A stretch of 61,237 bases of DNA, from positions 1 through 61,237 of IMG/VR virus record IMGVR_UViG_3300042939_000506, one strand, 5' to 3'. Source of the DNA: a virus. Its lineage: Duplodnaviria > Caudoviricetes. Of the stretch, positions 605-61,237 are shown piece by piece. Under the pieces are notes generated by a model that was not told where the DNA came from, made no database searches, and was given only the letters and a program-made list of their open reading frames with translations. The first letter of the stretch is position 1; each line of letters starts with the position of its first letter. Position numbers and translations under genes: made by a program.

Positions 605-1461
605 CCCTCAAGAAGATCGACTACATGGAGAACGCCCGATACTGGGGGCTGTCGGCGGTCGGCCAGGAACTGCGCCTGGTCAACAAACCGGTCAGCTACA
701 CCACCAACCTCCCGGCCCGGCAGCGCGACCAGATCAAAGCGTGCTCCGTGCTGGGTCTGACCTACTGGTCCGACCATCCCGGCAAGAGTTGCGTGTGGGC
801 CACCGACTTCCACCGCCGCTGGCATGTGGTCAAGATCGACTACAAGAACCGTGTAGCCGAGCACTACTGCGGCAAAGGGGACGCGCTGGGCTACAAGCAC
901 GGCTCCGACAAGTGCAGCCACACCGGAACCCGCAAGCAGTTCCTGGCCTGCGAAAGCCTGCAGATCGCGGCCATGGAACTGGCGTGCCCCTCCGTCGAAG
1001 ACCACGACCAGTACGCCGAACTGTCCCGTATCTGGCATTCCACGCCGACGTTTTTCGACGGCAAGGACTGGGAACCGCCGCCGGCGAAGTACACCGCCGC
1101 TGAGAAACGGCTCATCAAAGAGCGCAACGAGACCAAGGCCGCTCAGCGTGACGCCGAGATTGACGCCTTGATCGAGGCCAAGACAGCGGAGTACCGATCC
1201 CAGTCTCCCGAGCAGATAGTGCGGCCACCGCGCAAGAAGAAGGTGGTCCGGGCCGTCCTCCGCAAGTCCTCGCTGGGCGAGGTGGTCCCACCGCGCATGA
1301 CCTTGGAGGCCGCTATCGCCATCATCAACTTTGACCCGGAGTTTCTGCAGGACGTTCCCAGTGAGCGGCTTGTCGAGGCACTAGGCGCAACACCCCATGA
1401 CGAGAAGATCAAAGCCGAACTGGCTGCCCGAGGACTGACCCCCGCCAAGGAGGCATCGTGA
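601..1461 (+). CDS. Hypothetical protein
   Basis: Start moved to GTG 601 (GTGA coupling) within the 403..1461 frame; phage-like codon use. Confidence 0.75.
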   Translation: MTLKKIDYMENARYWGLSAVGQELRLVNKPVSYTTNLPARQRDQIKACSVLGLTYWSDHPGKSCVWATDFHRRWHVVKIDYKNRVAEHYCGKGDALGYKHGSDKCSHTGTRKQFLACESLQIAAMELACPSVEDHDQYAELSRIWHSTPTFFDGKDWEPPPAKYTAAEKRLIKERNETKAAQRDAEIDALIEAKTAEYRSQSPEQIVRPPRKKKVVRAVLRKSSLGEVVPPRMTLEAAIAIINFDPEFLQDVPSERLVEALGATPHDEKIKAELAARGLTPAKEAS

Positions 1462-1652
1462 ATCCCATCCAACCGCCCATGACCAACAGGGAGATCGCCC
1501 TGGACTTCGCCATGCGCCTGGCGATCACCGTCGGAGAGTCCAACGGCGCGGCAGTGGTCAAGAACGCCGAGGCGTTCCTGGCCTTCCTCGACGCTGTGCC
1601 AGCCCCCACCGTGCAAGCACGGCCCCTGTCGTTTGTGGGAGCAGTCGAATGA
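1458..1652 (+). CDS. Small hypothetical protein
   Basis: AAGGAGG RBS; GTGA/ATGA coupling on both sides. Confidence 0.7.
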   Translation: MNPIQPPMTNREIALDFAMRLAITVGESNGAAVVKNAEAFLAFLDAVPAPTVQARPLSFVGAVE

Positions 1653-1846
1653 TGCCGAATCAGAGCCCCGACTACATGCGCGGATCATCAGATGCTCTCG
1701 CGGGGATGGCCAACGGTATTTCGGTGCTGCTGAAAAGAGACACCGTTCCCGACTGCTGCCGGAAATACTTGGAAGCTCTGCGTGCCGCAGCCTCAACCGC
1801 ATCCTCGATCAGCGAAGTGGAGGCGATCTGTGCCGAGGGTTCCTGA
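1649..1846 (+). CDS. Small hypothetical protein
   Basis: ATGA coupling; fills the gap before the polymerase. Confidence 0.6.
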   Translation: MMPNQSPDYMRGSSDALAGMANGISVLLKRDTVPDCCRKYLEALRAAASTASSISEVEAICAEGS

Positions 1847-3638
1847 CCGATCCTGGTACGACCCTGTTCTCGACGCCACGCTGCACACCGGAGACAACGC
1901 TGTCTCCAAGGTCAACGACCTTTACTGCAGCCGTCCACGCCGCATAGCCATCGACATCGAGACACCAGGACTGGATCGCAGCTTCGTCATCAACTGTGTC
2001 ACTGCGGCCTGGATCGAGGGCCCCGGAGTTCAGGTGGTGCTGCTGGACCCGGCACGCGACGGTCTGCACCACAACAAGGTGCGCGACATCATGGAACGGG
2101 CAGCGTCGGTGGTGCTGCACAACGCACCCTTCGACATTCCGGCTCTCTACCACCACAACCTCATCACGGCTGCCGAGATCAACCGGGTGACCGACACGTT
2201 GCTGCTGGCACGCATGGCCTGGCCCAACCCGTATGACACAGAGACCGGAAAGCGGGACCTGACCTCGCTGGCCACCCGGCTGCTGGGCATGGAGGACTTC
2301 GACAAAGGCATGACGCTGGCGTTCAAGGCGGCAGGCTTCAAGACCAAGCAGGCCGGGTACGAGGGCATGGACATCGACTCCCCCATCTACCGGCGGGGAG
2401 CCATGGCCGACACCGTGGCCACTCTGCGGCTGGAACCCATCGTCAGGCAGTACGCCAGACAACGGCTCACCGACCATGGCCTGCCCTCCGGGGCGCACAG
2501 CGACCATGAGGCCGACCAGATCATCGCGGTGCAGGAAACGGTCAACCGGGTGATGCTGCGGCGCACCGCACGCGGCATCAACGTCGACTCCGACTACCTG
2601 ACCCGTTACGCCGAACAGGTGGACAGTGATCGCACCAAAGCGCGGGAAACCCTGTCGGCGGCTGGCCTGGACGGCGGTGTCGGTAAATCCGCGGCCCTGG
2701 TCGGCTACCTGGACTCCATCGGGGAACTGCCGCCGAACTGGAAACGCACCGAGACAGGCAAGCTCGCTGCCACCAAGGAACTGCTCACCGGACTGGATCA
2801 TCCGCTGGCCGACGCTCAGCGTCGGCTGGCTGAAACCGACAAGGTGCTGGGCTACCTCGACAAGGTGTACCGGCAATCTCTGGTGACCGGAAGATGCCAC
2901 CCACAGATCGGTGTGCTGGGAGCGAGTCAGACCGGGCGCATGTCCTGCTCTGCACCGGAACTACAGCAGTTTCCGAAGGAAGCGCGGCCCATCCTGATCG
3001 CTGACCATGAACTCGGTCTGTCCAGTATCGACTGGTCCCAGATCGAGCCGGTGACGATGGGGCTGCTGGCACGCGACGAGAAGTTCCTGGCCGACTACGA
3101 AGCCGGTGAGGATCTGTACGGCCCGATCCAGACCGCTGCCGGCATTGACCGGACGCTGGCCAAGGTGGTGCTGCTGGCCACGATGTACGGCCAGGGAATC
3201 ACCGGGCTGGCCAAACGTATCGGCAAGCATGAGAACGACGCCGCCCAGATCCGCCGCCAGATGCTCGACGCGATGCCTGAGTGCAAACGCTGGATGGCCA
3301 ACGTGCAGGCATACGCCGAGCAGTTCGGTGTGGTGATGACAGCGGCAGGACGGGTGCTGCCGGTGGATTCCGGTGGGGCTTTCCGCGCTGTCAACTACGT
3401 CGTGCAGGGCAGCGCCTATGACGTGCTGGCGCACAGCATCTGCGAGGCAGAACGGCAAGGGTTGGGTGACCACATCGTGCTGGCGATGCACGACGAACTG
3501 GTGGTGGACACGGTGGTGGCCGAGGAGGTGCAGCGGATCATGACCACACCGCCGCCCTGGCTGGCCGAATGGGCTGGGCGCACCCCGACACTCAGAACAG
3601 ACCGCGAGGATATGGGACCGACATGGCTAAAGGTGTGA
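1830..3638 (+). CDS. polA: DNA polymerase, family A (3'-5' exonuclease + polymerase)
   Basis: Exo motifs DIETPG and HNAPFD; TGRMS; motif A DWSQIE; motif B KVVLLATMYG; motif C MHDEL; GGAGG before GTG 1830. Confidence 0.95.
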   Translation: MPRVPDRSWYDPVLDATLHTGDNAVSKVNDLYCSRPRRIAIDIETPGLDRSFVINCVTAAWIEGPGVQVVLLDPARDGLHHNKVRDIMERAASVVLHNAPFDIPALYHHNLITAAEINRVTDTLLLARMAWPNPYDTETGKRDLTSLATRLLGMEDFDKGMTLAFKAAGFKTKQAGYEGMDIDSPIYRRGAMADTVATLRLEPIVRQYARQRLTDHGLPSGAHSDHEADQIIAVQETVNRVMLRRTARGINVDSDYLTRYAEQVDSDRTKARETLSAAGLDGGVGKSAALVGYLDSIGELPPNWKRTETGKLAATKELLTGLDHPLADAQRRLAETDKVLGYLDKVYRQSLVTGRCHPQIGVLGASQTGRMSCSAPELQQFPKEARPILIADHELGLSSIDWSQIEPVTMGLLARDEKFLADYEAGEDLYGPIQTAAGIDRTLAKVVLLATMYGQGITGLAKRIGKHENDAAQIRRQMLDAMPECKRWMANVQAYAEQFGVVMTAAGRVLPVDSGGAFRAVNYVVQGSAYDVLAHSICEAERQGLGDHIVLAMHDELVVDTVVAEEVQRIMTTPPPWLAEWAGRTPTLRTDREDMGPTWLKV

Positions 3639-12124: not shown

Positions 12125-12747
12125 CGCGGGGGTGCTCCTGCGCTGAAGCGCATCATGTAAGACAGCCCGGTCTGAATGACGGTCTTGACCATCATGACGC
12201 CCACAATCGTCCACAGTTCAGCGGAGAAAAGATCAGCGTCCGGGCCGATCAGCATTGCCATCCCCGCGAACACCGCCATTCCGATGTCCAGTGCCGCGCC
12301 CTGGATGAACGTCCTGGTGGTGGCCGGTCCCCCGGAGAACGCCGCCTCAAGGTTGTCGGACTGTTCTTCGACTTCCTCAGCGACTTCTGCTTTGACCATC
12401 TTGGCGATGGCACGCTGCGTTCCGGCCTGCATGGAGTCTTTGTTCTCGACCACCGACTGGGTGATGGCCTGCCGGATGGCTTCGCGCAGTTCGGTGCCGA
12501 TGTCCACCTTGACGGTTTCCCCGGTCTGCGGGTTTCGGGCCACCACCGGAGGCAGATCCGGCTGCATCTGCTGAGCCGGTTGCGAGTATGGCTGCGGATA
12601 TGGCTGCGGGTACGGCTGCCCAGCCGGGGGCACATACGGCGGCACCGGGCTGGGTGTGTAGGTGTAGTTCGGGGGCGGTTGAGGGGGAGGCTGAGCCGGC
12701 GGCTGCCCGTTGGGGTTCTGGGGCGGGTTGTCCCACGGCATTGACAT
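12121..12747 (-). CDS. Probable holin with Pro/Gln-rich N-terminus
   Basis: Directly after lysin; RTFIQG followed by two TM segments. Confidence 0.65.
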   Translation of the reverse strand: MSMPWDNPPQNPNGQPPAQPPPQPPPNYTYTPSPVPPYVPPAGQPYPQPYPQPYSQPAQQMQPDLPPVVARNPQTGETVKVDIGTELREAIRQAITQSVVENKDSMQAGTQRAIAKMVKAEVAEEVEEQSDNLEAAFSGGPATTRTFIQGAALDIGMAVFAGMAMLIGPDADLFSAELWTIVGVMMVKTVIQTGLSYMMRFSAGAPPR

Positions 12748-14066
12748 CAGAAGCTGCCTCGCACGTTCTCGTACAGTTCGCGGGCGTTGATCCCGGCTTT
12801 TTCTGCCAGGGCGAACACCAAAGCCTGCGTGAGCAGACCCTCGGCTCGCAGCGACAGCAGCGTGCCTTCTAAGTCGTCGGCTTGTGAATGATGGAACGGC
12901 CTACCTGTGAGCGGAGTCGGCATCATTGTCGGCGGCGGCTCATGATGCACAGGCGGTGGCTCAGGTGCCGGTTCGTGCACAGGCGGCGGCGGCTCGTGAT
13001 GCACACCCGGTTCGTTGGAGCCGTCCAGCACCGGCAGCGGGTCCACCTTCGCCCCCGGATCGTAACCACGCGGCATATACGACAGATGCAGATGCGCGGC
13101 CACACCACCGTTGGTGCCCTCGTTGGGGTTGATGATGCCGATCTGCTGACCCGCTTGGACTTTCGCACCCACAGTGAGCGCGTGCTCCCGAACGATGTGG
13201 CCGTACTCCCACACCCCGCCACCCTGCGAATCGTCGGAGTCGATGACGAGCCAACCGCACGGGTCCGGGCCGCCGTAACCAGCTGCGGCACCGGAGAAGA
13301 TGACCGTCCCCGACTGCACCGCGAACACCGGGCGGTCCCCAGCACCGCCGTTGAACCCGAAGTCCACCCCGGTGTGGATTGTCCCCCACCGAGGCCCGAA
13401 CGGGCTGGTGACAATCCGATCCGCGGTGACCGGCCAGAACCGGCCCTGAGTTGCAACTGGGGCGGGACCGGGCAGCGCCGGGGCGTGGACGCTGCCGTGG
13501 GGCCGCGCCCAGATGTAACCCTTGCCCGCTGCGAGCAGAACGGTCTGCGCCAAGGTCAGCCAATAGCCCCACTTGCCGGGTGTTGACGGGCCACCGGAGT
13601 CGGTGATCCACACCGCCTGCTGGTTGTCCTCGTCGCTGTATCCATGTGCGCTGACGTAGTGGTAGGTGGTTCCGAAGTTGTAGAAACTCGGTGCCGGGCC
13701 GGAACCTTTGATCGGGAACGGGATGTTGTTCTGCGGGGCGACAAAGTTGATGACCAGGCCGAAACCGGCGTCAACGCTGGTTCGCAGGTTGTTCCAGAAG
13801 GTTTCAACCTCGTCCTGCGTTGGTGGGTCGTTGGGGAGCGACACGGTGATGTAGTCGGCGTTGTGGACGTACTCATTGAGCACACGCTCGATGAGGCCGA
13901 GGTGGTCGGTGCCGCCTTCATGTGTCTGGCACTTTGCGGCCAGAATGTGTTCCTCGACGTGGATGCCCCTGTCCGACAAACACATCTGTGCGCTGGCTGG
14001 ACCACACCAATATCCGGTTTCCTGTGCCGCCAGATCGGCGTTGTACGGAAGGATCTTCTCGGTCAC
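12747..14066 (-). CDS. lysA: Lysin A: C39-like peptidase + M23 peptidase
   Basis: QETGYWCGPAS (C39-like); HTGVDFG, YGH and HLH (M23); HEPPP linker; start reset to GTG 14066. Confidence 0.9.
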   Translation of the reverse strand: MTEKILPYNADLAAQETGYWCGPASAQMCLSDRGIHVEEHILAAKCQTHEGGTDHLGLIERVLNEYVHNADYITVSLPNDPPTQDEVETFWNNLRTSVDAGFGLVINFVAPQNNIPFPIKGSGPAPSFYNFGTTYHYVSAHGYSDEDNQQAVWITDSGGPSTPGKWGYWLTLAQTVLLAAGKGYIWARPHGSVHAPALPGPAPVATQGRFWPVTADRIVTSPFGPRWGTIHTGVDFGFNGGAGDRPVFAVQSGTVIFSGAAAGYGGPDPCGWLVIDSDDSQGGGVWEYGHIVREHALTVGAKVQAGQQIGIINPNEGTNGGVAAHLHLSYMPRGYDPGAKVDPLPVLDGSNEPGVHHEPPPPVHEPAPEPPPVHHEPPPTMMPTPLTGRPFHHSQADDLEGTLLSLRAEGLLTQALVFALAEKAGINARELYENVRGSF

Positions 14067-51846: not shown

Positions 51847-52490
51847 CCGCGCAACTGGAACTGTTCACTCCCGCCCAACTCACACCCGCAGGCCCGGCCT
51901 ACGAACGCGAACGGTACTGGGGTATCGCCATTTGCCACCCCGGCGGCTGGGGACGAGACACCGACGAACCCACCGACACCTGCCGCCCCACCCTCCTGTC
52001 ACTGGACATGCGCTGCAACTGCTGGAACCGCCGCGGCGAAGAACGCTGCCAGTGCGTCGGCTACTACCTGTTTCGGGGTTCCTGCCGGGGGTGCAGCTGG
52101 TACGGCCCCGCCCGCACCAGCGAAGACGCCGCCGTCTACGACACCCACGACCACTGCTACCCCGGCTGGCGAGAACTGCCCGTCATCATCGGCCCCATCC
52201 CCGAAACCGGCAGCGGCAAAAAAGGCACAAGCATCGACTCCTTCATCGCCCGGCTGGAATCCATCGGCTACCCGCCAGGATGGATACAGGCCGGTGGACC
52301 CATCCGCGAACGCCGACAACAAGGCGGCACCCGCGCCCACACCGTCCACACCGGATACGGCAACTACACCATCTGCGGAGAAGTGGTCGGCTGCTGCCTG
52401 AGCATCGGCATGAACAGCTGCGAAGGACTGGACCGCTGCCTCACCGGCAGATGCACGCCCTACGAGTTCCCCGATCAGGAAATCGAGTAG
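51843..52490 (+). CDS. Cys/His-rich hypothetical protein (DUF6349-like)
   Basis: CRGCSWYGPAR.SEDAAV.D.HDHCYPGWRELP; GPIRERR..GTRA. Confidence 0.7.
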   Translation: MTAQLELFTPAQLTPAGPAYERERYWGIAICHPGGWGRDTDEPTDTCRPTLLSLDMRCNCWNRRGEERCQCVGYYLFRGSCRGCSWYGPARTSEDAAVYDTHDHCYPGWRELPVIIGPIPETGSGKKGTSIDSFIARLESIGYPPGWIQAGGPIRERRQQGGTRAHTVHTGYGNYTICGEVVGCCLSIGMNSCEGLDRCLTGRCTPYEFPDQEIE

Positions 52491-52858
52491 ACCAGCCGCG
52501 AAGCACCATGCTGCGTCGGACCCCGGTCCTCAAACCCGGCCCGTAACGCCCAGCGTTTGTCCCACGACAGAATCTCCACTTCCTTGAACCGGGCACTGAC
52601 CGCGTACTGCAGGCACGCCTGAGACACCTCGTCCCCCAACCCCATTCCGCGGAAATCCGGCCTCACCCAGACAGCCCGAATCCGGGCCTTCGTCGAACTC
52701 ACCGGAGCCACCCCCGCAAAACCGGTGATCCGGCCCTTGGAGTTGACCGTCTTGAACCACACGCAATCCTTCACCTGGGTCACGTTCACCCGCTCCTTCG
52801 CCGCAAGAGCGGCGAAAGGAGCGATCTCCTTCCAGGTGGCCCTCTCCACCGCCATCAT
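52475..52858 (-). CDS. GNAT-family acetyltransferase
   Basis: RIRAVWVRPDFRGMGLG (motif A), RAGF. Confidence 0.88.
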   Translation of the reverse strand: MMAVERATWKEIAPFAALAAKERVNVTQVKDCVWFKTVNSKGRITGFAGVAPVSSTKARIRAVWVRPDFRGMGLGDEVSQACLQYAVSARFKEVEILSWDKRWALRAGFEDRGPTQHGASRLVYSIS

Positions 52859-53400
52859 TCCGCCTTCGGATACCAAGCTTGCGAATACGCCCACTTGTTG
52901 ATGCTGCGGGCACTGAACACGCCCTCCTGGGCGAGCAGATCCACTTCCTCCTTGGTGCCGCCGATCTCGGCGGCGATCACATCACGCGCCACACCGTGCT
53001 CTTCGATCAGCTCCCGCACAATTGCGCTCATCTCCACCGCGATATGCGACCCCTTGGCCCGGTTGATCCGAATCGTCATCAACATCGCCGTGGGCCGGTC
53101 CACATCTAGCACCGCCACCGGAACCCGGCCCTTCCAACGAGCCCGGATTCGATCACTGTCCTGACTCAACCGCCATCGGTGAAACCCGTCGATGATGAGC
53201 CGGTCGGGGTTGACCAGCAACGGCTGCAACCACCCGGTAGACAGCACGCTCCGCTCAAGCAACCGCAACTCTGCAGCGTGCACCCGGTTCGGATTCCAGG
53301 TGTTGGGGTCGAGGGTGTCTGCCGGCACCCATCGGATGTGGTCAACGGGATCTCCCTCCGCAGCATCCAAACGGGGCAACCCCGCCGCGTTCACCGTCAC
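52855..53400 (-). CDS. IbrB-like ParB/sulfiredoxin-fold protein
   Basis: DPVDHIRWV..LDPNTWNPN, GWLQP, IIDGFHRW, TIRINRAKGSH. Confidence 0.88.
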   Translation of the reverse strand: MTVNAAGLPRLDAAEGDPVDHIRWVPADTLDPNTWNPNRVHAAELRLLERSVLSTGWLQPLLVNPDRLIIDGFHRWRLSQDSDRIRARWKGRVPVAVLDVDRPTAMLMTIRINRAKGSHIAVEMSAIVRELIEEHGVARDVIAAEIGGTKEEVDLLAQEGVFSARSINKWAYSQAWYPKAE

Positions 53401-54491
53401 GACGCCTTCTCCTTACGGGCCTGCTGCTGAGCAACACTGAGCGCGGTGATTGCTCGCTTATAAGCACCCGCCATGAACTGACCCAACACGTAATCCGGCG
53501 GGTACGAGTCGGGGGTTTCCACCGCCTTGGACCGCACATGACCCAACTCTTTGAGAGCCTTGGCACGCTGCACCTCGTCGTCGATGGTGTCCTCCACCCA
53601 CGCCTGCACCCCGTCATAGGACTGCCCGTACCGGGCGAACATGCCCGCCCGGTCCAGTTCGTGGTAGTACCGCTCCTGCACCGCCATTTCGGGGAACAAC
53701 TGCAGCAACTGGTCGTAGAACACCGGGGCGTAAGCCCTGGTGTTACCCAGCCGTTTAGCCCGCTCCGCGTGCAGCGGGGTCGACACCCGCAACGGCTCCT
53801 TGCTCAGCAGCTGCGAGTCATAGATCGGGCAGTAGCGGATGTCCCGGTCATAGAAGTACCGGAACACATCGTTCTCCTGCCAGTCGAAAATCGGCTTGGC
53901 GGTCATCACCCGCTTCTCGGCGGTGGTGTTGATGTAGTTCTCCGTCAGCTTCGCGGTCATCGCCCGAAACCGCATCAGCGACTCCGCGGCCCGGACCCCC
54001 GTCACGATGGCGACCTTGCCCTTCTCGTCACGGGCAGCCAGAGTGTCCATCGTGTACTGATCCAGCACCAGACGCCGATCCAAACACAGCTTCTCGGAGG
54101 TCAACGCGAAATCGGGGATCGGGCGCAGATGAGGTCGATCCGGGTCCCACTGGATATAGCGGGTCGAGGTCCCCAGAATGTACTTCGTCGATTCCAGCGG
54201 CACGCAGTACCACCGCATGTCGATCCAGTCCTTGCGGCGGTACTCGTCAACGAAATCCACCACCGCGTCCGGTATCAACTCCTCATCGCGGAACACCACC
54301 TTCACCGGGCGGCGGTCCCCCCGCTCCAACGCCACCTCACGCGCCAGATGCAACGTCACCAGCGAGTCCTTACCCCCGGAGAACGCCACCAGCACCGAAT
54401 CGAACACGTCGTAGATGTGGTGCATCCGCTTGACCGCCTCGGTCAGCACATCAGAGTCGATGAACCCCTTCACATGCTTGATCCGTTTCAC
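53397..54491 (-). CDS. IbrA-like PAPS reductase-family (PP-loop) protein
   Basis: VAFSGGKDSL PP-loop, FRDEE, GVRAAESLMR, PIFDWQENDV. Confidence 0.9.
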   Translation of the reverse strand: MKRIKHVKGFIDSDVLTEAVKRMHHIYDVFDSVLVAFSGGKDSLVTLHLAREVALERGDRRPVKVVFRDEELIPDAVVDFVDEYRRKDWIDMRWYCVPLESTKYILGTSTRYIQWDPDRPHLRPIPDFALTSEKLCLDRRLVLDQYTMDTLAARDEKGKVAIVTGVRAAESLMRFRAMTAKLTENYINTTAEKRVMTAKPIFDWQENDVFRYFYDRDIRYCPIYDSQLLSKEPLRVSTPLHAERAKRLGNTRAYAPVFYDQLLQLFPEMAVQERYYHELDRAGMFARYGQSYDGVQAWVEDTIDDEVQRAKALKELGHVRSKAVETPDSYPPDYVLGQFMAGAYKRAITALSVAQQQARKEKAS

Positions 54492-54625
54492 GGCAAACGG
54501 CCCTCATCGACCAGGTGCTGCACGATCCGGCAGGACAGCGCATAGGACTCAGCCGGCGTTCCGTAGGCGTGTTCAAGGAAATACATGTCGACCACGACCT
54601 GCACCGCCCGGATCGTGTCGAGCAT
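54488..54625 (-). CDS. 45-aa hypothetical protein (not in ORF track)
   Basis: MLDTIRAVQVVVDMYFLEHAYGTPAESYALSCRIVQHLVDEGRLP; GTGA coupling to IbrA-like gene. Confidence 0.5.
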   Translation of the reverse strand: MLDTIRAVQVVVDMYFLEHAYGTPAESYALSCRIVQHLVDEGRLP

Positions 54626-54642
54626 GTCATCGACCCCGCCCA

Positions 54643-55302
54643 TCACATCACCGACGCGATGTAGTCACACAGACGTTGCGGCATTGTGGAGTCGGGGTCC
54701 TTGCGCTTCAACCAGCCGATGAAGTCGGTCCACACCTTCTTCTGCTTCTCATCGTCGAACACGATGGAGTAGCTGATGATTGACTGGCCGCGGTTGTTGA
54801 TCGGTTCCTCGTCATCATCGTCACCGGACAAATCGTCAATGTCCACGGTCACCGGCTCAGGCACCGACAGCAGCGCATCCAGATCCTCGGCGGTGTAGCC
54901 CAAACCGGTCAGATCGTCGGACACGTCAGAAAGCAGCGAAGCCAACTCCTTGTTGTCGTAACGGCCCTTCTCAGCGGTGCGGTTATCAGCCAGGACGATG
55001 CGTGCCGCCTGGTCCTCATCCACATCGACCCAATGCACCAGGATCGCGTTCCACCGCTCATCCTCAGGGTGGCGTTGCGCCAGCTGACGGAACGCTTTCA
55101 ACGTGTGGTTACCCGCCAGAACCTCAAACCGCCGCCCGGTGTGCGTCCCGATATTGGCCACAATCGGGCGGTACTGGCCGTGAGCCTTGAGGCTCGCGGC
55201 CACCGCCCCCACATTCCCCCGGCGCGGGTTACGACCGTAAATCCGCAGCGCCGACGGTGCCACAGACGAGGTTGTTTCCGGTGTCACATCGGTGTCAGCC
55301 AT
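54643..55302 (-). CDS. ParB-like protein
   Basis: RNPRRGNV..SLKAHGQYRPI, EVLAGNHT, RIVLADNR. Confidence 0.9.
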   Translation of the reverse strand: MADTDVTPETTSSVAPSALRIYGRNPRRGNVGAVAASLKAHGQYRPIVANIGTHTGRRFEVLAGNHTLKAFRQLAQRHPEDERWNAILVHWVDVDEDQAARIVLADNRTAEKGRYDNKELASLLSDVSDDLTGLGYTAEDLDALLSVPEPVTVDIDDLSGDDDDEEPINNRGQSIISYSIVFDDEKQKKVWTDFIGWLKRKDPDSTMPQRLCDYIASVM

Positions 55303-55979
55303 CAGACCCGGCTCCCCTCGGTCTCATTCAGGTGGGAAACCACCCGTTCGGCCAACGTCAAATCCGGGTCCGGGTACTGGTCCTTCAACCACTTCACAAA
55401 CGCGAACCACATCTCCTGCTGCGGCTCGTCGTCGAAGGTGATCGTGAAGCTGATCGCTGACTCCGACGCCGGCCCCAACACCGGAGGTTCCAACTCCGGG
55501 TCCTCCTCAGGAGGCTCGACATCCGGGGCGGCGGGACGGTCCAACGTCGCTTCCAGAGCATCCAGGTCAGCGTCGGAATACCCGGTGCCGGTGGTGCCGA
55601 CCTCACCCAGCAGCGCGACCAGAGTGTCGGTGTCGAACTCACCGGCATCGAAGCTGCGGTTGTCCACCAGCACGATGCGGGTGGCCATGTCGTCATCCAC
55701 ATCGACCCAATGCACCGCCACATGAGCCCACCGCTGATCGAACGGGTTCTGCTCAGCCAGGTCGCGGAACGCCTTCAGCGTGTGGTTTCCGGCCAGCACT
55801 TCATTCGGTCTGCCGGTGTGCGTCCCGATGTTGACTACCAGCGGCTTGAACTGGCCGTTGGCTTTCAGGGAACCGGCTATCGCATCGACATCCCCGATGC
55901 GGGCGTTGCGGTGAAACACCGACAGTTCTGATGGTTTGACGAGCGTCGTGGTGCCGACAAGCGGCGAGGTTGAGGCCAT
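55302..55979 (-). CDS. ParB-like protein (paralog)
   Basis: RNARIGDV..SLKANGQFKPL, EVLAGNHT, RIVLVDNR; start reset to ATG 55979. Confidence 0.9.
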   Translation of the reverse strand: MASTSPLVGTTTLVKPSELSVFHRNARIGDVDAIAGSLKANGQFKPLVVNIGTHTGRPNEVLAGNHTLKAFRDLAEQNPFDQRWAHVAVHWVDVDDDMATRIVLVDNRSFDAGEFDTDTLVALLGEVGTTGTGYSDADLDALEATLDRPAAPDVEPPEEDPELEPPVLGPASESAISFTITFDDEPQQEMWFAFVKWLKDQYPDPDLTLAERVVSHLNETEGSRV

Positions 55980-56044
55980 AACGCAGACGGTAGGAGGGGA
56001 CCGTGCAGGGCCATCAGGGACAAAGACACACCACAACGAAACCC

Positions 56045-56101
56045 TAGACAATACCTGCGGGAGTCTGTATTATCAACAGACCAGGCAGGGAAACACCCGC
56101 C
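56045..56101 (+). promoter_or_regulatory. Promoter TAGACA-17-TATTAT plus AGGCAGGG...CCCGCC leader
   Basis: Hexamers at 56045 and 56068; leader at 56083; GAAAGGA RBS follows. Confidence 0.8.
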
Positions 56102-58213: not shown

Positions 58214-58759
58214 TCACTGTGACGAAACCGCCACAACCCCCGGCCACACCACCACAAACCCCTGAGCATCCCGATACCGCTGCTGACGGCGGCGATGACA
58301 CTCCCGGCAGAACTCCTTGCCGTTGTGCACATACACGTTGTACCCCTGCATCGGGGACCCACACCGGCCACACGACCGCACCCCGGTGATATGAGCATCC
58401 AACAGCCTGTCCAATTTCGACTTCGTTCTAACCAACTCTGAGGACAACTCCTCCACCGTTTTCGCCAACTGCCGGGCCTCACTCTTGGCCAGGCGCAACT
58501 CGTTGGCGAAGTTGGCCGACTCCGACTGCATCTGCGAACACACCCGCGTCATATCCTCAGCCCGAATCGACCTGACCAACCTCAGGCTGCAACCCATCCG
58601 ATCCGCAATATCCTCGGCAGTCAGACCAGCCAGAGTCAAACCGGCGACGACCCAACAGCGATCCGACACCCCCAACTGAGACATCTTCCTGCCCGAACCC
58701 GCCAGCACCGACGGAACAAGCTGAGCATCAGGAAACCACCGAACCCGATCATCACCCAC
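58214..58759 (-). CDS. HTH DNA-binding protein with coiled coil and C-terminal zinc ribbon
   Basis: GLTAEDIADRMGCSLRLVRSI; CGRCG...CRECH. Confidence 0.8.
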   Translation of the reverse strand: MGDDRVRWFPDAQLVPSVLAGSGRKMSQLGVSDRCWVVAGLTLAGLTAEDIADRMGCSLRLVRSIRAEDMTRVCSQMQSESANFANELRLAKSEARQLAKTVEELSSELVRTKSKLDRLLDAHITGVRSCGRCGSPMQGYNVYVHNGKEFCRECHRRRQQRYRDAQGFVVVWPGVVAVSSQ

Positions 58760-59036
58760 CCGCCCAGAATAACAATGGCGTAACCACTCTGCGTTATCGA
58801 ATTAGCTGAACCCGGCAAAAAACTCGGGGAAAATAACGAAGGCGGGAGGCATTGTCGTTTTCCGATTTCACCGAAAAACTGCGGGTCGGGCGACTGCTGT
58901 GGTTCCCGAGAACAGTGGCTCCCTGGGGACAGGGTTCTGGCCTACTGTGGTCAGTGTGAGTGAGTTCAGGTTTGCCAGTCCCCTGCCTGGGGACACCTGT
59001 CTTCTGCTGTCTCACACCCCACTGAGAGGTTTTACT

Positions 59037-59555
59037 ATGTCCAACTTCATCTCCCAGACCACTGTTGCTCCTTACAGGGCTCATGTGGCCTCTGTCATCT
59101 GCCCTGCCTATGGGTGGGACTTCCTGCAGGTGGCCACCACCACTGACACCCTTACCAAAGATGGTGAGGTGGTCACTCTGGTCTGGGGTGCCAACAAGCT
59201 GCTGAGCTTCTCCTCCACTGCAGGGTTGGTGGTTGATGGTCAAGCCCCCTGCAAATTGCAGAAACTGACCAACCTGCTGGCAGGTTCCAAAGTCATGGGA
59301 GAGACTCCAGATTCCATCTGGGCCAGCCTGCCTGCTGGCCACCCTGCCAAGTTGGGGGCTAAGGCAGCACTGAGGGCCAAAGCTGCAGAGATCCTGGTGG
59401 ACATGCTGCCTGCAACCTCAGCTGTTGATGCTGAGATTGCCAAGCTGGAGACTCCTGCTCCTGCCAAGAAGGCTCCTGCCAAGAAGGCTCCTGCCAGCAG
59501 GAAGGCAGGCAGCAAGGTGGTTGCTGCCACCACCCTGGAGGACATGGGCTTCTAG
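59037..59555 (+). CDS. 172-aa hypothetical protein with PAKKA (histone H1/HupB-like) tail
   Basis: GAGAGG RBS at 59024, ATG 59037; PAPAKKAPAKKAPASRK; only three Arg, all AGG. Confidence 0.8.
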   Translation: MSNFISQTTVAPYRAHVASVICPAYGWDFLQVATTTDTLTKDGEVVTLVWGANKLLSFSSTAGLVVDGQAPCKLQKLTNLLAGSKVMGETPDSIWASLPAGHPAKLGAKAALRAKAAEILVDMLPATSAVDAEIAKLETPAPAKKAPAKKAPASRKAGSKVVAATTLEDMGF

Positions 59556-59569
59556 CCTCACCTCCCAGC

Positions 59570-59597
59570 AGCCCCACCCCCACTGGGGGTGGGGCTT
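59570..59597 (+). terminator. Hairpin after the CpG-free gene
   Basis: AGCCCCACCCCC-ACT-GGGGGTGGGGCT; short U tail. Confidence 0.7.
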
Positions 59598-59727
59598 GCT
59601 GCTGTCTGCAGCAGGAGCCGGCTGCACCCACGAACACGGAGGCGGGGGACGAGAGCGGGTGCCGGCGGCGGGGGCGGTGGCGGGACGCCACCCGGACGGA
59701 ACGACACCCGGCCCCGGCGCGGTCGGT

Positions 59728-59763
59728 CGGGCGGTCGCCCGGGCGGTCGCCCGGGCGGTCGCT
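59728..59763 (+). repeat. 12-bp tandem repeat x3
   Basis: CGGGCGGTCGCC CGGGCGGTCGCC CGGGCGGTCGCT. Confidence 0.9.
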
Positions 59764-59888
59764 CCGCCCCACGCCCCGCCACTCGCACGACCGTCCGGTC
59801 GGTGTCGGGGTGGGTGTGCCGCGGTGTCGGGGCGGGGTCGGGCGGGGTCGGTGACGGCCTCCCACGCCCCTCCATCCGCAAACGAACA

Positions 59889-59988
59889 AAGTCGAGGAAA
59901 GGCGCCCCGAAACCTACCGTGACCTGGCCGTTCCCACTAGGCTGGCCTTAGGCCAGCAACCAAGCGGGCCTGAACGAGAGGAAACGAG
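59889..59988 (+). repeat. About 100-bp promoter/RBS repeat, copy 1
   Basis: AAGTCGAGGAAAG..ACCTACCGTGACCTG..TAGGCTGGCCTTAGGCCAGCAACCAAGCGGGCCTGAACGAGAGGAAACG. Confidence 0.9.
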
Positions 59989-60246
59989 ATGAGCGGATCA
60001 CAGCCGTTGTGGGTCGTGGAGGCCCGTGCCCAACGTGCCTTCGACATGGCGGTGCGGCTGATGCGTCAGGGCGACAAGGAGACGGCCACAACGTGGCTGC
60101 TCGAATGGTGCGACCTGCACGACCGGGTGAAGGCGTTGAAGGCCGAGGAGGAAGCGGCCAGCAAGCGGCGGCGCAAGCAGTTCGCCCTGGCCGCTCAGAT
60201 CGGGCGGTGGCAGAGCGAGCAGAACGAGGAGGTGACGGGCAGCTGA
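59989..60246 (+). CDS. Small helical hypothetical protein
   Basis: GAGAGGAA RBS inside the repeat. Confidence 0.75.
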   Translation: MSGSQPLWVVEARAQRAFDMAVRLMRQGDKETATTWLLEWCDLHDRVKALKAEEEAASKRRRKQFALAAQIGRWQSEQNEEVTGS

Positions 60247-60312
60247 CGTGGTGAGCGTCCCCTCCGGGGGACGCCACCCCACCCGCCACTGACCGACCGC
60301 CCCGCAAACACG

Positions 60313-60413
60313 GAAGTCGAGGAAAGTCGCCCCGGCACCTACCGTGACCTGCACGTTCCCAGTAGGCTGGCCTTAGGCCAGCAACCAAGCGGGCCTGAAC
60401 GAGAGGAAACGGA
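60313..60413 (+). repeat. About 100-bp promoter/RBS repeat, copy 2
   Basis: Near-identical to copy 1; the TAGGCT...GAGAGGAAACG part is identical. Confidence 0.9.
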
Positions 60414-60641
60414 ATGATCGAGATCACCCGGAGGAGCCCGCTCAGTGGCGACCTCCACACGATGACCATCGACGCCACCAACGAGCAGTTGACGGCGTTC
60501 CTGTCGGGCGTGAAGGTGCAGGACGCCTTCCCGCAGGTGAGCCCGGAGGAGCGTGAGTTCATCCTGACCGGGATCACCCCCGCCGAGTGGGAAGCGATGT
60601 TCGACGGGTCCAGCGAGGTTGAAGTGGACTTCGCGGAATGA
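60414..60641 (+). CDS. Small conserved phage hypothetical protein
   Basis: RRSPLSG..HTMTID; VQDAFPQVSPEEREFILTGITPAEW; RBS inside repeat. Confidence 0.8.
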   Translation: MIEITRRSPLSGDLHTMTIDATNEQLTAFLSGVKVQDAFPQVSPEEREFILTGITPAEWEAMFDGSSEVEVDFAE

Positions 60642-60804
60642 CAGCGGCCTGGCGGGAGGGGTTGCGGTCAACCCCTCCCGAGGAACTGCTGCGGCGAGCA
60701 GCCACCCGACGGAAGATCGCCCAGGCGATGGAGGAGCGTGGCCAGCCCGGTGCCGCGGCCTGGCAGCGTCGGCGGGCAGACGAGGAGGTGGCGGCGGCTC
60801 AGTG

Positions 60805-60959
60805 ACGGTGAGCGTCCCTCCGGGGACGCCACCCCACCCGACGCCGACCGACCGCACGAAGTCGGAACAAGTCGCCCGTCTGACTACCGGAAACCTGCCG
60901 TGACCTGGGATGATGGTGTTGGCCAGGAAGAAGCCGGGCCTAAACGAGAGGAAACGAGA
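60805..60959 (+). repeat. Hairpin plus diverged promoter/RBS repeat, copy 3
   Basis: GGTGAGCGTCCC..GGGACGCCACCCCACCCG matches 60250-60285; ACCTGCCGTGACCTG; GGGCCTAAACGAGAGGAAACGAG. Confidence 0.8.
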
Positions 60960-61175
60960 ATGACGGAGAATACCGTGACGTTGACCAAGAGCCAGGCCAA
61001 GGCTCTTGCCGAGGTGATTCGGTCTGAGGTCGAGCGTGACGCCCTGCTCGGCTGGATCGACAAGGTCGTTGCCTCCGGCCTGATCCCGTCCAAGACGGTC
61101 GTCCACTACGACCTGGGCGTGCTGCCCGGTGAGGAGTACGAGGACATCGTTTGGGACGAGGAGGACGAGGACTGA
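60960..61175 (+). CDS. Small acidic hypothetical protein (71 aa)
   Basis: RBS inside repeat; ends GEEYEDIVWDEEDED; followed by hairpin GTGCCGGCCCACC..GGTGGGTCGGCAC. Confidence 0.75.
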   Translation: MTENTVTLTKSQAKALAEVIRSEVERDALLGWIDKVVASGLIPSKTVVHYDLGVLPGEEYEDIVWDEEDED

Positions 61176-61237
61176 CGTCCTCTGACGTGCCGGCCCACCT
61201 GCGGGTGGGTCGGCACGCCACCCGACCGCCCGAACGA

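Follow-up and report, generated by a model that had tools for sequence, protein, structure and literature searches.

A block without CG dinucleotides spanning a predicted transcription unit in the CG-rich genome of a lake phage: a possible countermeasure to a CG-directed host factor

Organization of the locus

The window analysed in this study, i.e. the whole stretch of 61,237 nucleotides, is the 61-kb genome of a lake phage of the mycobacteriophage-like (cluster-B-like) type, whose relatives infect Mycobacterium, Gordonia and Tsukamurella. CG is absent throughout positions 58909..59618 of this genome (710 nt, 59.3% G+C). The features of the block and of its surroundings are listed below.

58214..58759, minus strand: gene of an HTH/zinc-ribbon DNA-binding protein, the divergent neighbour (phrog_928, E 4e-62)
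58760..58908, no strand: upstream portion of the divergent intergenic region, with normal CG (15 vs 10.5 expected)
58909..59036, plus strand: CG-free leader of 128 nt (0 CG vs 10.4 expected)
59037..59555, plus strand: CG-free ORF encoding a protein of 172 aa, P0001 (0 CG vs 44.2 expected)
59457..59501, plus strand: 15-nt repeat in 3 copies encoding the (A)PAKKA-type tail
59556..59618, plus strand: CG-free 3' part (0 CG vs 7.8 expected)
59567..59600, plus strand: terminator-type hairpin lacking CG, about 15 bp long and interrupted by one bulge (-53.4 kcal/mol, z -3.1)
59619..59888, no strand: abutting non-coding stretch of 270 bp (49 CG, 80% G+C)
59889..61237, plus strand: array of small monocistronic genes, with normal CG in all of them

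The phrog_928 gene is the sole neighbour conserved with relatives of the phage, and its protein matches 524 phage records, mostly of Mycobacterium phages. Within the leader, TACTGT (58943-58948) is the only -10-like hexamer of the TANNNT type; a promoter scan of the leader region found no sigma-70 consensus promoter, and an Rfam scan returned nothing at the gathering score. The leader fold is about as stable as that of shuffled sequences (z -0.13). A ribosome binding site, GAGAGG (59024-59029), is located 7 nt ahead of the ATG, and sites of this type are common to the ORF of the block and the neighbouring genes. The block begins 34 nt ahead of the -10-like hexamer and ends some 18 nt beyond the hairpin, and the ATG lies 128 nt from its 5' limit. 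These limits correspond roughly to the contact range of RNA polymerase. We infer that the block comprises one entire monocistronic transcription unit, the 5' end and promoter of which are putative. This agrees with the anatomy (leader, RBS, ORF and hairpin) proposed in an earlier note on the same DNA, made from the letters and their open reading frames. The same note described an all-GC hairpin stem lacking CG; the stem indeed contains no CG, but it includes A-T pairs and a 1-nt bulge.

The stretch abutting the block (59619..59888) is the genome's maximum for both CG density and G+C content at this length (270 bp), about 4.6 SD above the mean, and contains tandem repeats of 12, 10 and 6 nt. 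Further downstream, each gene of the array has a copy of a 107-nt repeat ahead of it (at 59889, 60314 and 60859) and a hairpin after it.

Extent and statistics of the CG depletion

The last CG before the block is found at 58907/58908 and the next one at 59619/59620, which gives a gap of 712 bp; the second-longest of the 6158 CG-to-CG gaps across the window measures 46 bp. From its own C and G content the block would be expected to contain 62.4 CG, as against none observed, and mononucleotide shuffles of the block (n=20,000) averaged 62.4 and never fell below 42. For CG, an exponential model predicts 10^-27.3 gaps at least as long as the one observed, while the same statistic amounts to 10^-3.4 or more for the longest gaps of the other 15 dinucleotides. 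The observed/expected ratio of CG for the whole window is 1.03 (6159 vs 5996), and none of the 700-bp windows off the block has a ratio below 0.80. The motif is therefore avoided below the expectation from composition in the block at 58909-59618 only, and not genome-wide. Thus, the absence of CG over 710 bp and the several tens of CG expected there, both put forward in the earlier note, were borne out, and the sliding-window analysis it had proposed confined the depletion to the block.

The codon count gave the same picture as had been reported from the letters. All three Arg codons of the ORF are AGG, and the NCG and CGN codons, which represent 9.7% and 5.5% of all codons in this phage, are absent. 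Furthermore, no codon junction forms CG (0 vs 15.7 expected). This expectation was obtained by shuffling the gene's own synonymous codons among their positions 20,000 times; the shuffled ORFs contained a mean of 15.7 and a minimum of 7 CG, and in no case (0/20,000) was zero reached. The removal of CG also alters the whole dinucleotide spectrum of the block.

Presence in independent samples and a second allele

The stretch is present in 24 runs of 24 studies (2016-2024), 13 of which contain at least half of the sampled words; no RNA run was found among the 24. The edges of the block were checked in contigs of four of these runs (X4, X5, X11 and X14), all of them free of a possible-source flag; bridging contigs had 31 nt or more on each side of the edge. 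The left edge was bridged in three of the four (X4, X5 and X11), the X14 contig reaching only 15 nt leftward, and the right edge in all four; one X4 contig (58867-59795, 0 differences) covers both edges. Since both edges are bridged by contigs from independent lake runs, the block is not a chimera, the possibility for which a boundary check had been advised. The copy number of the 15-nt repeat varies in other runs (joint 59496->59462 in X5 and X14), and a 1-nt indel polymorphism was detected at position 59730 in X4 and X5.

A search of genome_contigs revealed a second allele, L003, in which 707 bp at the corresponding position lack CG. Its identity with the sequence analysed here is 240/244 in the flanks, 125/127 in the leader and 441/516 in the ORF. 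The dS of the ORF amounts to 0.67-0.97 over codons 26-128 and to 0 over the last 45 codons, and values just outside the ORF interior range from 0 to about 0.02; the interior is clearly a recombinant tract. The hairpin stem is kept in L003, with changes close to the loop, and the first CG 3' of the hairpin occurs at 16-17 nt (18-19 nt in this phage).

Among the 397 possible synonymous single changes, 117 create CG, and about 15 CG would be expected to arise from 83 random substitutions; simulations without any CG were not obtained (0/5000). The two alleles show conservation of the CG-free state and, because L003 lacks CG despite an ORF dS of about 0.7-1.0, they indicate that the selection against CG is long-standing. 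A CG-free homologue persisting despite divergence is what the earlier note had suggested looking for. Taken together, the missing junction CGs, the CG-free non-coding parts and the diverged but CG-free L003 show that the target of this selection is the nucleic acid rather than codon use, in agreement with the same note.

Lineage specificity of the CG-free state

Megablast and tblastn searches with the block against 50,697 phage records gave no match. Searches with the protein or with alignments A1/A3 revealed no related locus in viral_contigs and metagenome_contigs, no match was found to a 26-nt word of the leader in viral_contigs, and none was obtained by tblastn with P0009 and P0019. A profile search of the fetched records identified gp65 of the Mycobacterium prophage prophiGD79-1 as a syntenic, distant homologue (E 6e-13). 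The CG content of its gene is normal (38 vs 52 expected), and the largest CG gap in the whole prophiGD79-1 genome is 99 bp. In the loci surrounding the phrog_928 homologue, the largest CG gaps are 92 bp in prophiGD79-1, 48 bp in Evaa, and 52 and 63 bp in two IMG/VR contigs. A marginal family match (13.8 bits; tblastn E 8e-4), to which little weight is given, was observed for Evaa gp81 (61 CG vs 50 expected).

The comparison with gp65, which is one distant homologue, shows the CG-free trait to be specific to the lineage of this phage. As gp65 is syntenic and CG-normal, and the RBS GAGAGG is of the local type, the CG-free unit most probably represents a derived state and not one of foreign origin.

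Protein P0001 and its family

In P0001, an orphan N-domain (about 125 aa) is followed by a Lys/Ala/Pro linker and by a ..E-D-M-G-F peptide that is conserved at the C-terminus and may resemble the tails of SSB or of ribosomal stalk proteins. The protein is net basic (15 K and 3 R vs 8 D and 6 E). It gave no match in Pfam (E <= 0.1), PHROGs, PADLOC, NCBIfam or PDB sequence profiles, including the anti-defence and anti-restriction families described in these databases. The features of the ESM Atlas contained nothing usable and the structural neighbours in the Atlas were all under the bar, the only structural lead being a low-confidence Atlas model (pLDDT 0.58).

The family comprises 18 representatives among 1.84 billion proteins, and P0003/P0004 are homologues at 54% identity. 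Three of the 18 are fusions carrying a C-terminal module that we presume to be nuclease-like from its D..E-A-K motif. One of the fusions, P0010, matches mREase_IV of PADLOC (E 1.9e-5) and residues 238-347 of ScoMcrA (E 2e-4), and this region lies mostly inside the SRA-like domain by the limits given in the relevant part of PMC6224610. P0001 itself contains neither an SRA-like nor a nuclease-like module. It looks DNA-associated, and would be at most a standalone copy of the N-terminal module of type IV-restriction-like nucleases.

All ten standalone homologues that were looked up reside on contigs of 647-1346 nt. These short contigs are only a weak hint of a mobile cassette and were not used as evidence of mobility, because assemblies break at the Lys/Ala/Pro repeat, which many organisms share. 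The standalone family members are Arg-poor and Lys-rich. Family-wide CG avoidance, considered on the basis of this composition, was dropped as an explanation, since gp65 is as Lys-rich (20 K, 6 R) and has normal CG.

Avoidance of palindromes and the PAPS-reductase/ParB/GNAT cluster

CG-containing hexamer palindromes are strongly avoided genome-wide, two examples being CGGCCG (0 vs 41.6 expected) and ATCGAT (0 vs 21.8). Fourteen hexamer palindromes with an expectation of at least 6.8 are absent, as compared with none of the 2210 non-palindromic hexamers with an expectation of at least 10. The summed palindromes number 333 vs 988 expected in this phage and 1270 vs 1563 in prophiGD79-1. We conclude that the lineage is under strong pressure from sequence-directed nucleases.

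Matches to PF01507 (PAPS-reductase-like), PF02195 (ParB) and PF00583 (GNAT) were detected at 52475-54491, and the genome encodes two more ParB-like genes. A scan of 38 window ORFs gave no match to a DNA methyltransferase family. The prophage prophiGD79-1 carries a PAPS-reductase homologue (75% identical) as well as ParB-like genes. The link between the CG-free unit and an IbrA/IbrB/GNAT cassette, drawn in the earlier note, is consequently not supported: a CG-normal homologue, gp65, occurs beside the same PAPS-reductase/ParB cassette, in a single comparison with a distant relative.

Possible function of the CG-free unit

Escape from a CG-directed host defence, the second of the two options offered in the earlier note, is in our opinion the best reading inferred from these data, and the unit may tentatively be regarded, with somewhat less than even confidence, as a CG-proof cassette whose product counters a CG-directed host factor. 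According to this proposal, selection would have recoded a self-contained expression cassette, located in a putatively early, non-structural region, to a CG-free form, whose limits lie about 130 nt ahead of the start codon and about 18 nt beyond the terminator hairpin. The host activity would need CG for nucleic-acid recognition, and the unit would keep functioning in its presence. On DNA, the agent could be a nuclease, an enzyme modifying bases or the backbone, or a roadblock protein, possibly methyl-CG-directed as in type IV restriction; on mRNA, an endoribonuclease is a candidate. Within this reading we consider it marginally better than an even chance that the protected molecule is DNA, promoter included, and marginally worse than even that it is mRNA. 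The countermeasure encoded by the unit would be the reason why it must stay functional. The principle would be that of an engineered mRNA devoid of target sites, still translated when a sequence-specific RNase has removed the other transcripts, or of an anti-restriction gene residing in DNA without targets. Its product may compete with or poison type IV-restriction-like nucleases sharing its N-domain, and the conserved C-terminal peptide may be of a docking type.

It should be mentioned that a CG-directed DNA nuclease would destroy the CG-rich remainder of the genome (6159 CG) regardless, which weighs against the reading. If DNA is the target, a reversible action (binding or marking) would thus be more coherent than cleavage, since these other CGs would be cut anyway. 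We know of no CG-specific nuclease, RNase or binder in bacteria, and neither such an activity nor a naturally CG-free phage gene was found in the main texts of the literature searched.

A bolder form of the proposal, which is possible though doubtful, is that some freshwater actinobacteria have an immune or regulatory activity reading bare CG in DNA or RNA (a prokaryotic analogue of the CpG-directed restriction exerted by ZAP, an RNase that cuts at CG in abortive infection, or an enzyme marking DNA at CG). The CG-free 'single-protein-production' cassette of the phage would then stay expressible while all else is attacked, and would encode the standalone N-terminal module of the very nuclease that it neutralises. 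The abutting CG-densest stretch could be part of this device, either by acting as a sink or by providing a cut site from which the cassette is released intact.

Four other biological explanations were considered. An unlikely one is that the CG-directed agent is the phage's own, i.e. P0001 or a partner, which would bind or cut DNA or RNA containing CG so as to shut off the host or coat DNA, the gene being target-free so that its production continues. This would follow the same logic as the ACA-free mRNA precedent discussed below; the tail of P0001 is of the DNA-binding type (Lys/Ala/Pro repeats), the N-domain shared with the nuclease fusions is maybe their targeting module, and the CG-densest stretch of the genome, which the gene adjoins, could be a loading site. 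However, the remaining CG-rich genes of the phage would be targets as well, the homologue in prophiGD79-1 is not exempt, and the 172-aa protein has no nuclease domain.

It is more unlikely still that CG is avoided as an intrinsic property of a very highly expressed mRNA, tuning its stability, structure or translation (e.g. by evading the preference of a housekeeping RNase) with no dedicated defence involved. No other phage gene is depleted in CG (the lowest observed/expected ratio elsewhere is 0.80), the avoidance is absolute rather than graded, and the leader fold is no stabler than its shuffles. NCG and CGN codons are normally favoured in high-G+C actinobacterial genes, and they are frequent in this phage (see above). 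The monocistronic structure with its strong terminal hairpin, together with the change of the entire dinucleotide spectrum that accompanies CG removal, nevertheless fits such an explanation.

The first option of the earlier note, a pioneer gene that would be the only unit readable by the host RNA polymerase on incoming virion DNA modified at CG, is improbable. It draws on the PAPS-reductase-like, ParB_N and GNAT cluster, to which no function is assigned (PAPS-reductase-like phage proteins are likened to DndC in a passage of PMC8092301), and on the inclusion of promoter-proximal DNA as well as the transcript in the block. The results obtained do not support it. The strong genome-wide avoidance of CG palindromes argues against CG-modified virion DNA, because a protective CG modification would make such avoidance needless; the CG sites seem instead to be exposed to restriction. 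Moreover, no methyltransferase was detected in the ORFs scanned, prophiGD79-1 combines the same cassette with a CG-normal homologue, and the polymerase and primase genes, which would be needed next, are CG-rich.

Passive import, in which recombination brought in the cassette and, in a separate event, the divergent ORF interior from entirely CG-free genomes without selection on CG in this phage, is quite improbable. The ORF interior is recombinant (dS 0.7-1.0, as against 0 to about 0.02 in its surroundings) and the standalone homologues looked up were all found on short contigs, but the leader and 3' part lack CG even though they have a recent ancestry in common with the CG-rich flanks, the homologue in a related prophage occupies the syntenic position, and the RBS is local in type. 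An organism or phage that has 59% G+C but no CG at all is not known to us, and the literature searched contained none.

An artefact (an assembly chimera, a spike-in or synthetic CpG-free construct, or eukaryotic contamination), although suggested by a codon and dinucleotide pattern that looks vertebrate-like or synthetic, has a negligible probability and is refuted as far as the contigs show by the bridged edges, the recovery from 24 studies, the two natural alleles and the protein family, and the bacterial RBS and hairpin of the unit.

The absolute exclusion of a dinucleotide from one transcription unit, maintained while synonymous sites diverged almost to saturation, is a very clear mark of selection at the nucleic-acid level. 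Under the preferred reading, i.e. a countermeasure to a CG-directed host factor, it would imply a so far undescribed bacterial CG-reading activity, for which the 172-aa protein and its nuclease-fused relatives could serve as bait. If this is confirmed, phages would be able to shield single key genes through recoding, and motif-free islands in motif-rich phage genomes may provide a simple scan for counter-defence genes and for the specificity of uncharacterised defences.

Comparison with known systems

The block resembles the avoidance of restriction sites by phages in that a short self-complementary word has been removed by selection on nucleic acid regardless of coding, and the same genome displays the classical palindrome form of this avoidance to an extreme degree. 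In contrast to the classical form, the word is only 2 bp long and is absent absolutely, from one 710-bp unit in an otherwise CG-normal genome, and the block has no known cognate enzyme.

In MazF-producing cells, ACA-free transcripts are still translated, as stated in the part of PMC5408214 consulted. Similarly, a transcript without any copy of a short motif would alone survive a motif-directed RNase; the ACA-less mRNAs are, however, engineered and lack a 3-nt motif, whereas the case described here is natural and concerns a dinucleotide, within predicted transcript limits. The RNase-toxin specificities given in that part of PMC5408214 do not include the CG dinucleotide, the nearest being that of MazF-mt7 (U^CGCU).

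A link to type IV methyl-directed restriction enzymes of the ScoMcrA/SRA type is given by the N-domain of the phage protein, which heads the fusion proteins of the family (the SRA-like part of ScoMcrA and mREase_IV being matched by P0010), but the phage protein is devoid of the SRA-like and nuclease-like modules.

The HupB-like nucleoid proteins of actinobacteria bear PAKKA-type tails. P0001 has a comparable Lys/Ala/Pro (A-P-A-K-K type) repeat tail, but no HU-type fold (no Pfam match, E <= 0.1).

T7 ocr and T4 arn are small early anti-restriction genes, whose products are needed before or despite a nucleic-acid-directed defence. In the reading proposed here, the CG-free unit would likewise be a small gene whose product must precede or withstand a defence, although P0001 has no sequence or family relation to these proteins. 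An acidic DNA-mimic composition is the mark of the Ocr/ArdA/Arn type; it was not found in P0001 (18 K+R vs 14 D+E), which, being net basic, is not an acidic DNA mimic. To our knowledge, the ocr and arn genes are not motif-free in this manner.

Because the host factor of the ZAP/KHNYN system reads CG as foreign, the virus eliminates CG from its sequence, coding or non-coding. CG is missing from both kinds of sequence in the phage unit as well; the suppression is eukaryotic, graded and genome-wide in the former, and bacterial, absolute and limited to a single gene in the latter. The CpG suppression of vertebrate RNA viruses and their CpG-directed restriction by ZAP/KHNYN are treated in the parts of PMC5659819 and PMC11670115 consulted. 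If the proposed reading is confirmed, the CpG-based discrimination of self from non-self found in vertebrates would extend to the arms race between phages and bacteria.

Size and anatomy of the CG-free unit

The window (61,237 bp, 62.6% G+C, estimated completeness about 90%) contains 6159 CG dinucleotides versus 5996 expected, which is a normal number. CG is nevertheless missing from a single gap of 712 bp, flanked by CG at 58907/58908 and at 59619/59620, while the second-longest gap is 46 bp. The enclosed block retains 59.3% G+C. From its base composition 62.4 CG would be expected, and none is present (the lowest count in 20,000 shuffles of the block was 42). Under an exponential model a CG gap of this length is expected 10^-27 times; for the other 15 dinucleotides of the window, no longest gap was rarer than 10^-3.4. 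The latter value belongs to the longest AA-free stretch (402 bp, 12349-12750), which is mildly unusual. Within the block TG, CA, CT and AG are in excess, since C cannot precede G.

Table. Parts of the CG-free unit (58909-59618)
Leader, 128 nt: 0 CG versus 10.4 expected
Ribosome-binding site GAGAGG, 7 nt 5' of the ATG: type matches that of the neighbouring small genes
ORF, 59037-59555, 172 codons: 0 CG versus 44.2 expected
Hairpin, 59567-59600, about 15 bp: -53.4 kcal/mol for the 101-nt context (z = -3.1)
CG-free bases after the hairpin, 18 nt: 0 CG versus 7.8 expected for the whole 3' part

The ORF uses AGG for all three Arg residues and lacks NCG codons, whereas in 22 other genes of the phage NCG and CGN account for 9.7% and 5.5% of codons, respectively. 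Moreover, no codon junction creates CG, despite the presence of 59 codons with a final C and 70 with an initial G. When the ORF's own synonymous codons were re-dealt among their positions (20,000 trials), a mean of 15.7 CG and a minimum of 7 were obtained. The earlier note had described a complete unit without CG and had placed the constraint on the nucleic acid rather than on codon choice. The gap, codon, junction and part-by-part counts bear out the description, and the codon shuffle and the contrast in codon usage, together with the absence of CG from junctions and non-coding parts, confirm the deduction.

The adjoining 270 bp (59619-59888) constitute the most CG-dense and most G+C-rich stretch of this length in the genome (80% G+C; 49 CG versus a genome mean of 27.0, SD 4.7). 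It contains G-runs and tandem repeats with units of 12, 10 and 6 nt (about 4, 3 and 4 copies, respectively). Two runs show a 1-nt indel polymorphism at 59730, from which we judge the stretch to be non-coding. We estimate the chance of its adjacency to the block, by position alone, at about 1 in 100 (2 of about 227 non-overlapping windows). Further downstream (59889-61237), as well as at positions 1200-3178 of the contig L003 described below, small monocistronic genes are arrayed in series. Upstream of each lies one copy of a 107-nt repeat (the copies being 92% and 62% identical), and a conserved hairpin follows each gene. With its -10-like hexamer (TAGGCT), small hairpin and RBS, the 107-nt element looks like a repeated promoter/leader module.

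Occurrence in lake metagenomes

Among lake or freshwater metagenomes dated 2016-2024, 24 listed runs (24 studies) contain the stretch, and at least half of the sampled words were found in 13 of these runs. The possibility that the block is an artefact, raised in the earlier note as a chimera, was checked on contigs of four runs, none of them among the 3 runs flagged as possible sources of the window. Contigs bridged the right edge in all four and the left edge in three (in the fourth they extend just 15 nt past it), and a single 929-nt contig covers both edges with 0 differences. No joint skipping the block was reported in the four runs, and the identical protein is recorded on 9 contigs. The block is thus real.

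A diverged allele that also lacks CG

A second allele was found on L003, a contig of 3178 bp. L003 is assigned to a Flavobacteriales MAG but, given its near-identity to the actinophage-like genome, is probably a mis-binned phage piece. The unit occupies the same place, with a CG gap of 707 bp (the next-longest being 37 bp). The left flank (240/244 identical positions) and the leader (125/127) are nearly identical to those of the window, while the ORF is identical at 441 of 516 positions and carries two 3-nt indels; it is CG-free despite this divergence. Nei-Gojobori estimates vary strongly along the ORF: dS 0.97 and dN 0.42 for codons 26-66 (highly variable at the protein level too), dS 0.67 and dN 0.05 for codons 67-128, and dS 0 for the last 45 codons. 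Positions 59051-59416 thus form a tract with dS of 0.67-0.97 within a backbone of about 98% identity, a contrast which indicates that recombination has swapped the interior of the ORF for that of an allele which diverged long ago and which is CG-free as well.

Such an outcome is not expected by chance: 117 of the 397 possible synonymous single changes of the window ORF create CG, and 83 random substitutions placed on the window sequence yielded about 15 CG, with zero CG in 0 of 5000 simulations under any of three transition biases. These comparisons, with conservation known from two alleles, show that selection against CG is long-standing and that the lack of CG is no remnant.

The encoded protein and its family

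The product (P0001) had no match in Pfam, PHROGs, PADLOC, NCBIfam or PDB, and its Atlas model was of low confidence (pLDDT 0.58), with structural neighbours under the bar. A word-based search revealed two relatives (86% and 54% identity), and a HMMER profile search of 1.84 billion representatives gave 18 proteins at E <= 0.001, 7 of them at <= 1e-10. The family shares a domain of about 120 aa. In most stand-alone members this domain continues into an Ala/Pro/Lys linker, and the protein ends with a short, conserved peptide. In P0001 the linker is encoded by three copies of a 15-nt repeat (59457-59501), giving a PAKKA-type tail, which is common among actinobacterial DNA-binding proteins. This repeat varies in copy number in other runs, as seen in X5 and X14 from a joint that jumps back by 35. 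Depth over it rises to 38-769, since similar repeats occur in unrelated lake organisms, whose contigs pile up there.

In three relatives (P0007, P0010 and P0011, on contigs of 22-89 kb) the N-terminal domain precedes a fused C-terminal module. This module carries a D..E-A-K motif, which we take to be PD-(D/E)xK-like; one cluster member of these fusion proteins bears a Planctomycetia MAG name. The middle region of P0010 matches PADLOC 'mREase_IV' (E 1.9e-5) and residues 238-347 of ScoMcrA (E 2e-4). By the domain limits given in PMC6224610 (SBD 91-260, SBD-SRA 91-442), this range falls mostly within the SRA-like domain. The fusion architecture and the PAKKA-type tail suggest that P0001 is a stand-alone copy of the N-terminal module of type IV-restriction-like nucleases with a DNA-binding-type tail, and the cellular fusions may represent an undescribed type IV restriction architecture.

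The phage and its relatives

The genome encodes a family A DNA polymerase, primase-polymerase/helicase, helicase, exonuclease, lysin, tape measure, major tail protein and terminase. The closest terminase matches are those of the Mycobacterium prophage prophiGD79-1 (67%), and of cluster-B-type mycobacteriophages and Gordonia phage Evaa (about 62%). The divergently transcribed neighbour of the unit (58214-58759, minus strand), the phrog_928 DNA-binding protein, matched homologues in 524 records; Mycobacterium phages account for 496 of these. It is the only gene conserved at the loci of four relatives, where no CG gap exceeded 92 bp.

The earlier note had linked the CG-free unit to an IbrA/IbrB/GNAT cassette, present in the window as a PAPS-reductase-like, ParB_N and GNAT gene cluster followed by two further ParB-like genes. 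prophiGD79-1 has three ParB-like genes as well as a PAPS-reductase homologue with 75% identity. Its member of the P0001 family, identified by a profile search of the retrieved records, is gp65 (E 6.4e-13), two genes away from the phrog_928 homologue in the same divergent orientation. gp65 has 38 CG versus 52 expected, and no CG gap in the whole prophage exceeds 99 bp. Normal CG content in homologs from cassette-bearing phages is a result that the earlier note itself had named as a refutation. The link is thus not supported, although gp65 is a remote homologue, and CG-freeness is derived within the lake lineage, being a property of neither the family nor cassette-bearing phages. The cluster is syntenic between 52475-56051 and MW584153.1 63025-67224, and an annotated methyltransferase (gp98) of prophiGD79-1 takes the position of the GNAT acetyltransferase.

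Loss of palindromic sites

Fourteen hexamer palindromes, including CGGCCG, TGATCA, CGCGCG, ATCGAT, TCCGGA, AGATCT and GGATCC, are wholly absent from the window (expectations 6.8-41.6), and CGATCG (1 versus 35 expected) and CCCGGG (2 versus 51) are nearly so; none of 2210 non-palindromic hexamers with an expectation of at least 10 is absent. All 64 palindromes together sum to 333 versus 988 expected, compared with 1270 versus 1563 in prophiGD79-1. The totals in sequences of relatives were 85 versus 269 (L007), 160 versus 315 (L005) and 411 versus 533 (L006). A few palindromes are tolerated (CTGCAG, TGGCCA, CAGCTG), and the CG-free block contains only these. The overall depletion indicates that the lake lineage, which is under heavy pressure from sequence-directed nucleases, escapes them by losing sites.

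Many of the lost palindromes contain CG, so the CG sites of the phage are probably not protectively modified. This, and the absence of a DNA methyltransferase match among the 38 window ORFs scanned, argues against the proposal of the earlier note that virion DNA is modified at CG and that the unit is a pioneer gene.

Possible role of the CG-free unit

A complete unit has been kept CG-free over the long term by selection on nucleic acid, in one lineage of an otherwise CG-normal phage group. Tentatively, and with somewhat less than even confidence, we propose that its product counters a CG-reading activity, for which reason the unit would have to stay usable while that activity operates. Less probably, the CG-directed agent may be borne by the phage itself, which spares its own unit; the absence of CG may reflect an intrinsic property of the mRNA; or the unit may have been passively imported from CG-free donors.

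If the product is a countermeasure, the protected molecule could be DNA or RNA, with DNA barely ahead; the strand cannot discriminate between them, because CG is its own reverse complement. DNA fits the limits of the block slightly better, since the block extends from 34 nt 5' of the sole TANNNT hexamer to about 18 nt past the hairpin, roughly the DNA with which RNA polymerase has to make contact. The tie of the protein family to DNA nucleases would also be consistent with a target of this kind. With DNA as the target, reversible action (binding or marking) would be more sensible than cleavage, as the other 6159 CGs of the genome would be cut anyway.

A literature search, mainly at the level of abstracts, returned no description of a phage with absolute, unit-limited dinucleotide exclusion, or of a bacterial activity that reads CG. 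There is a substantial chance that the unit marks something categorically new. Site avoidance and site-free transcripts are, as ideas, already known. An RNA target would be logically clean: a CG-cutting RNase would inflict reversible damage, and an RNase-proof inhibitor mRNA would rescue the infection. Such an mRNA would resemble the ACA-free transcripts which, according to PMC5408214, remain translated in MazF-producing cells.
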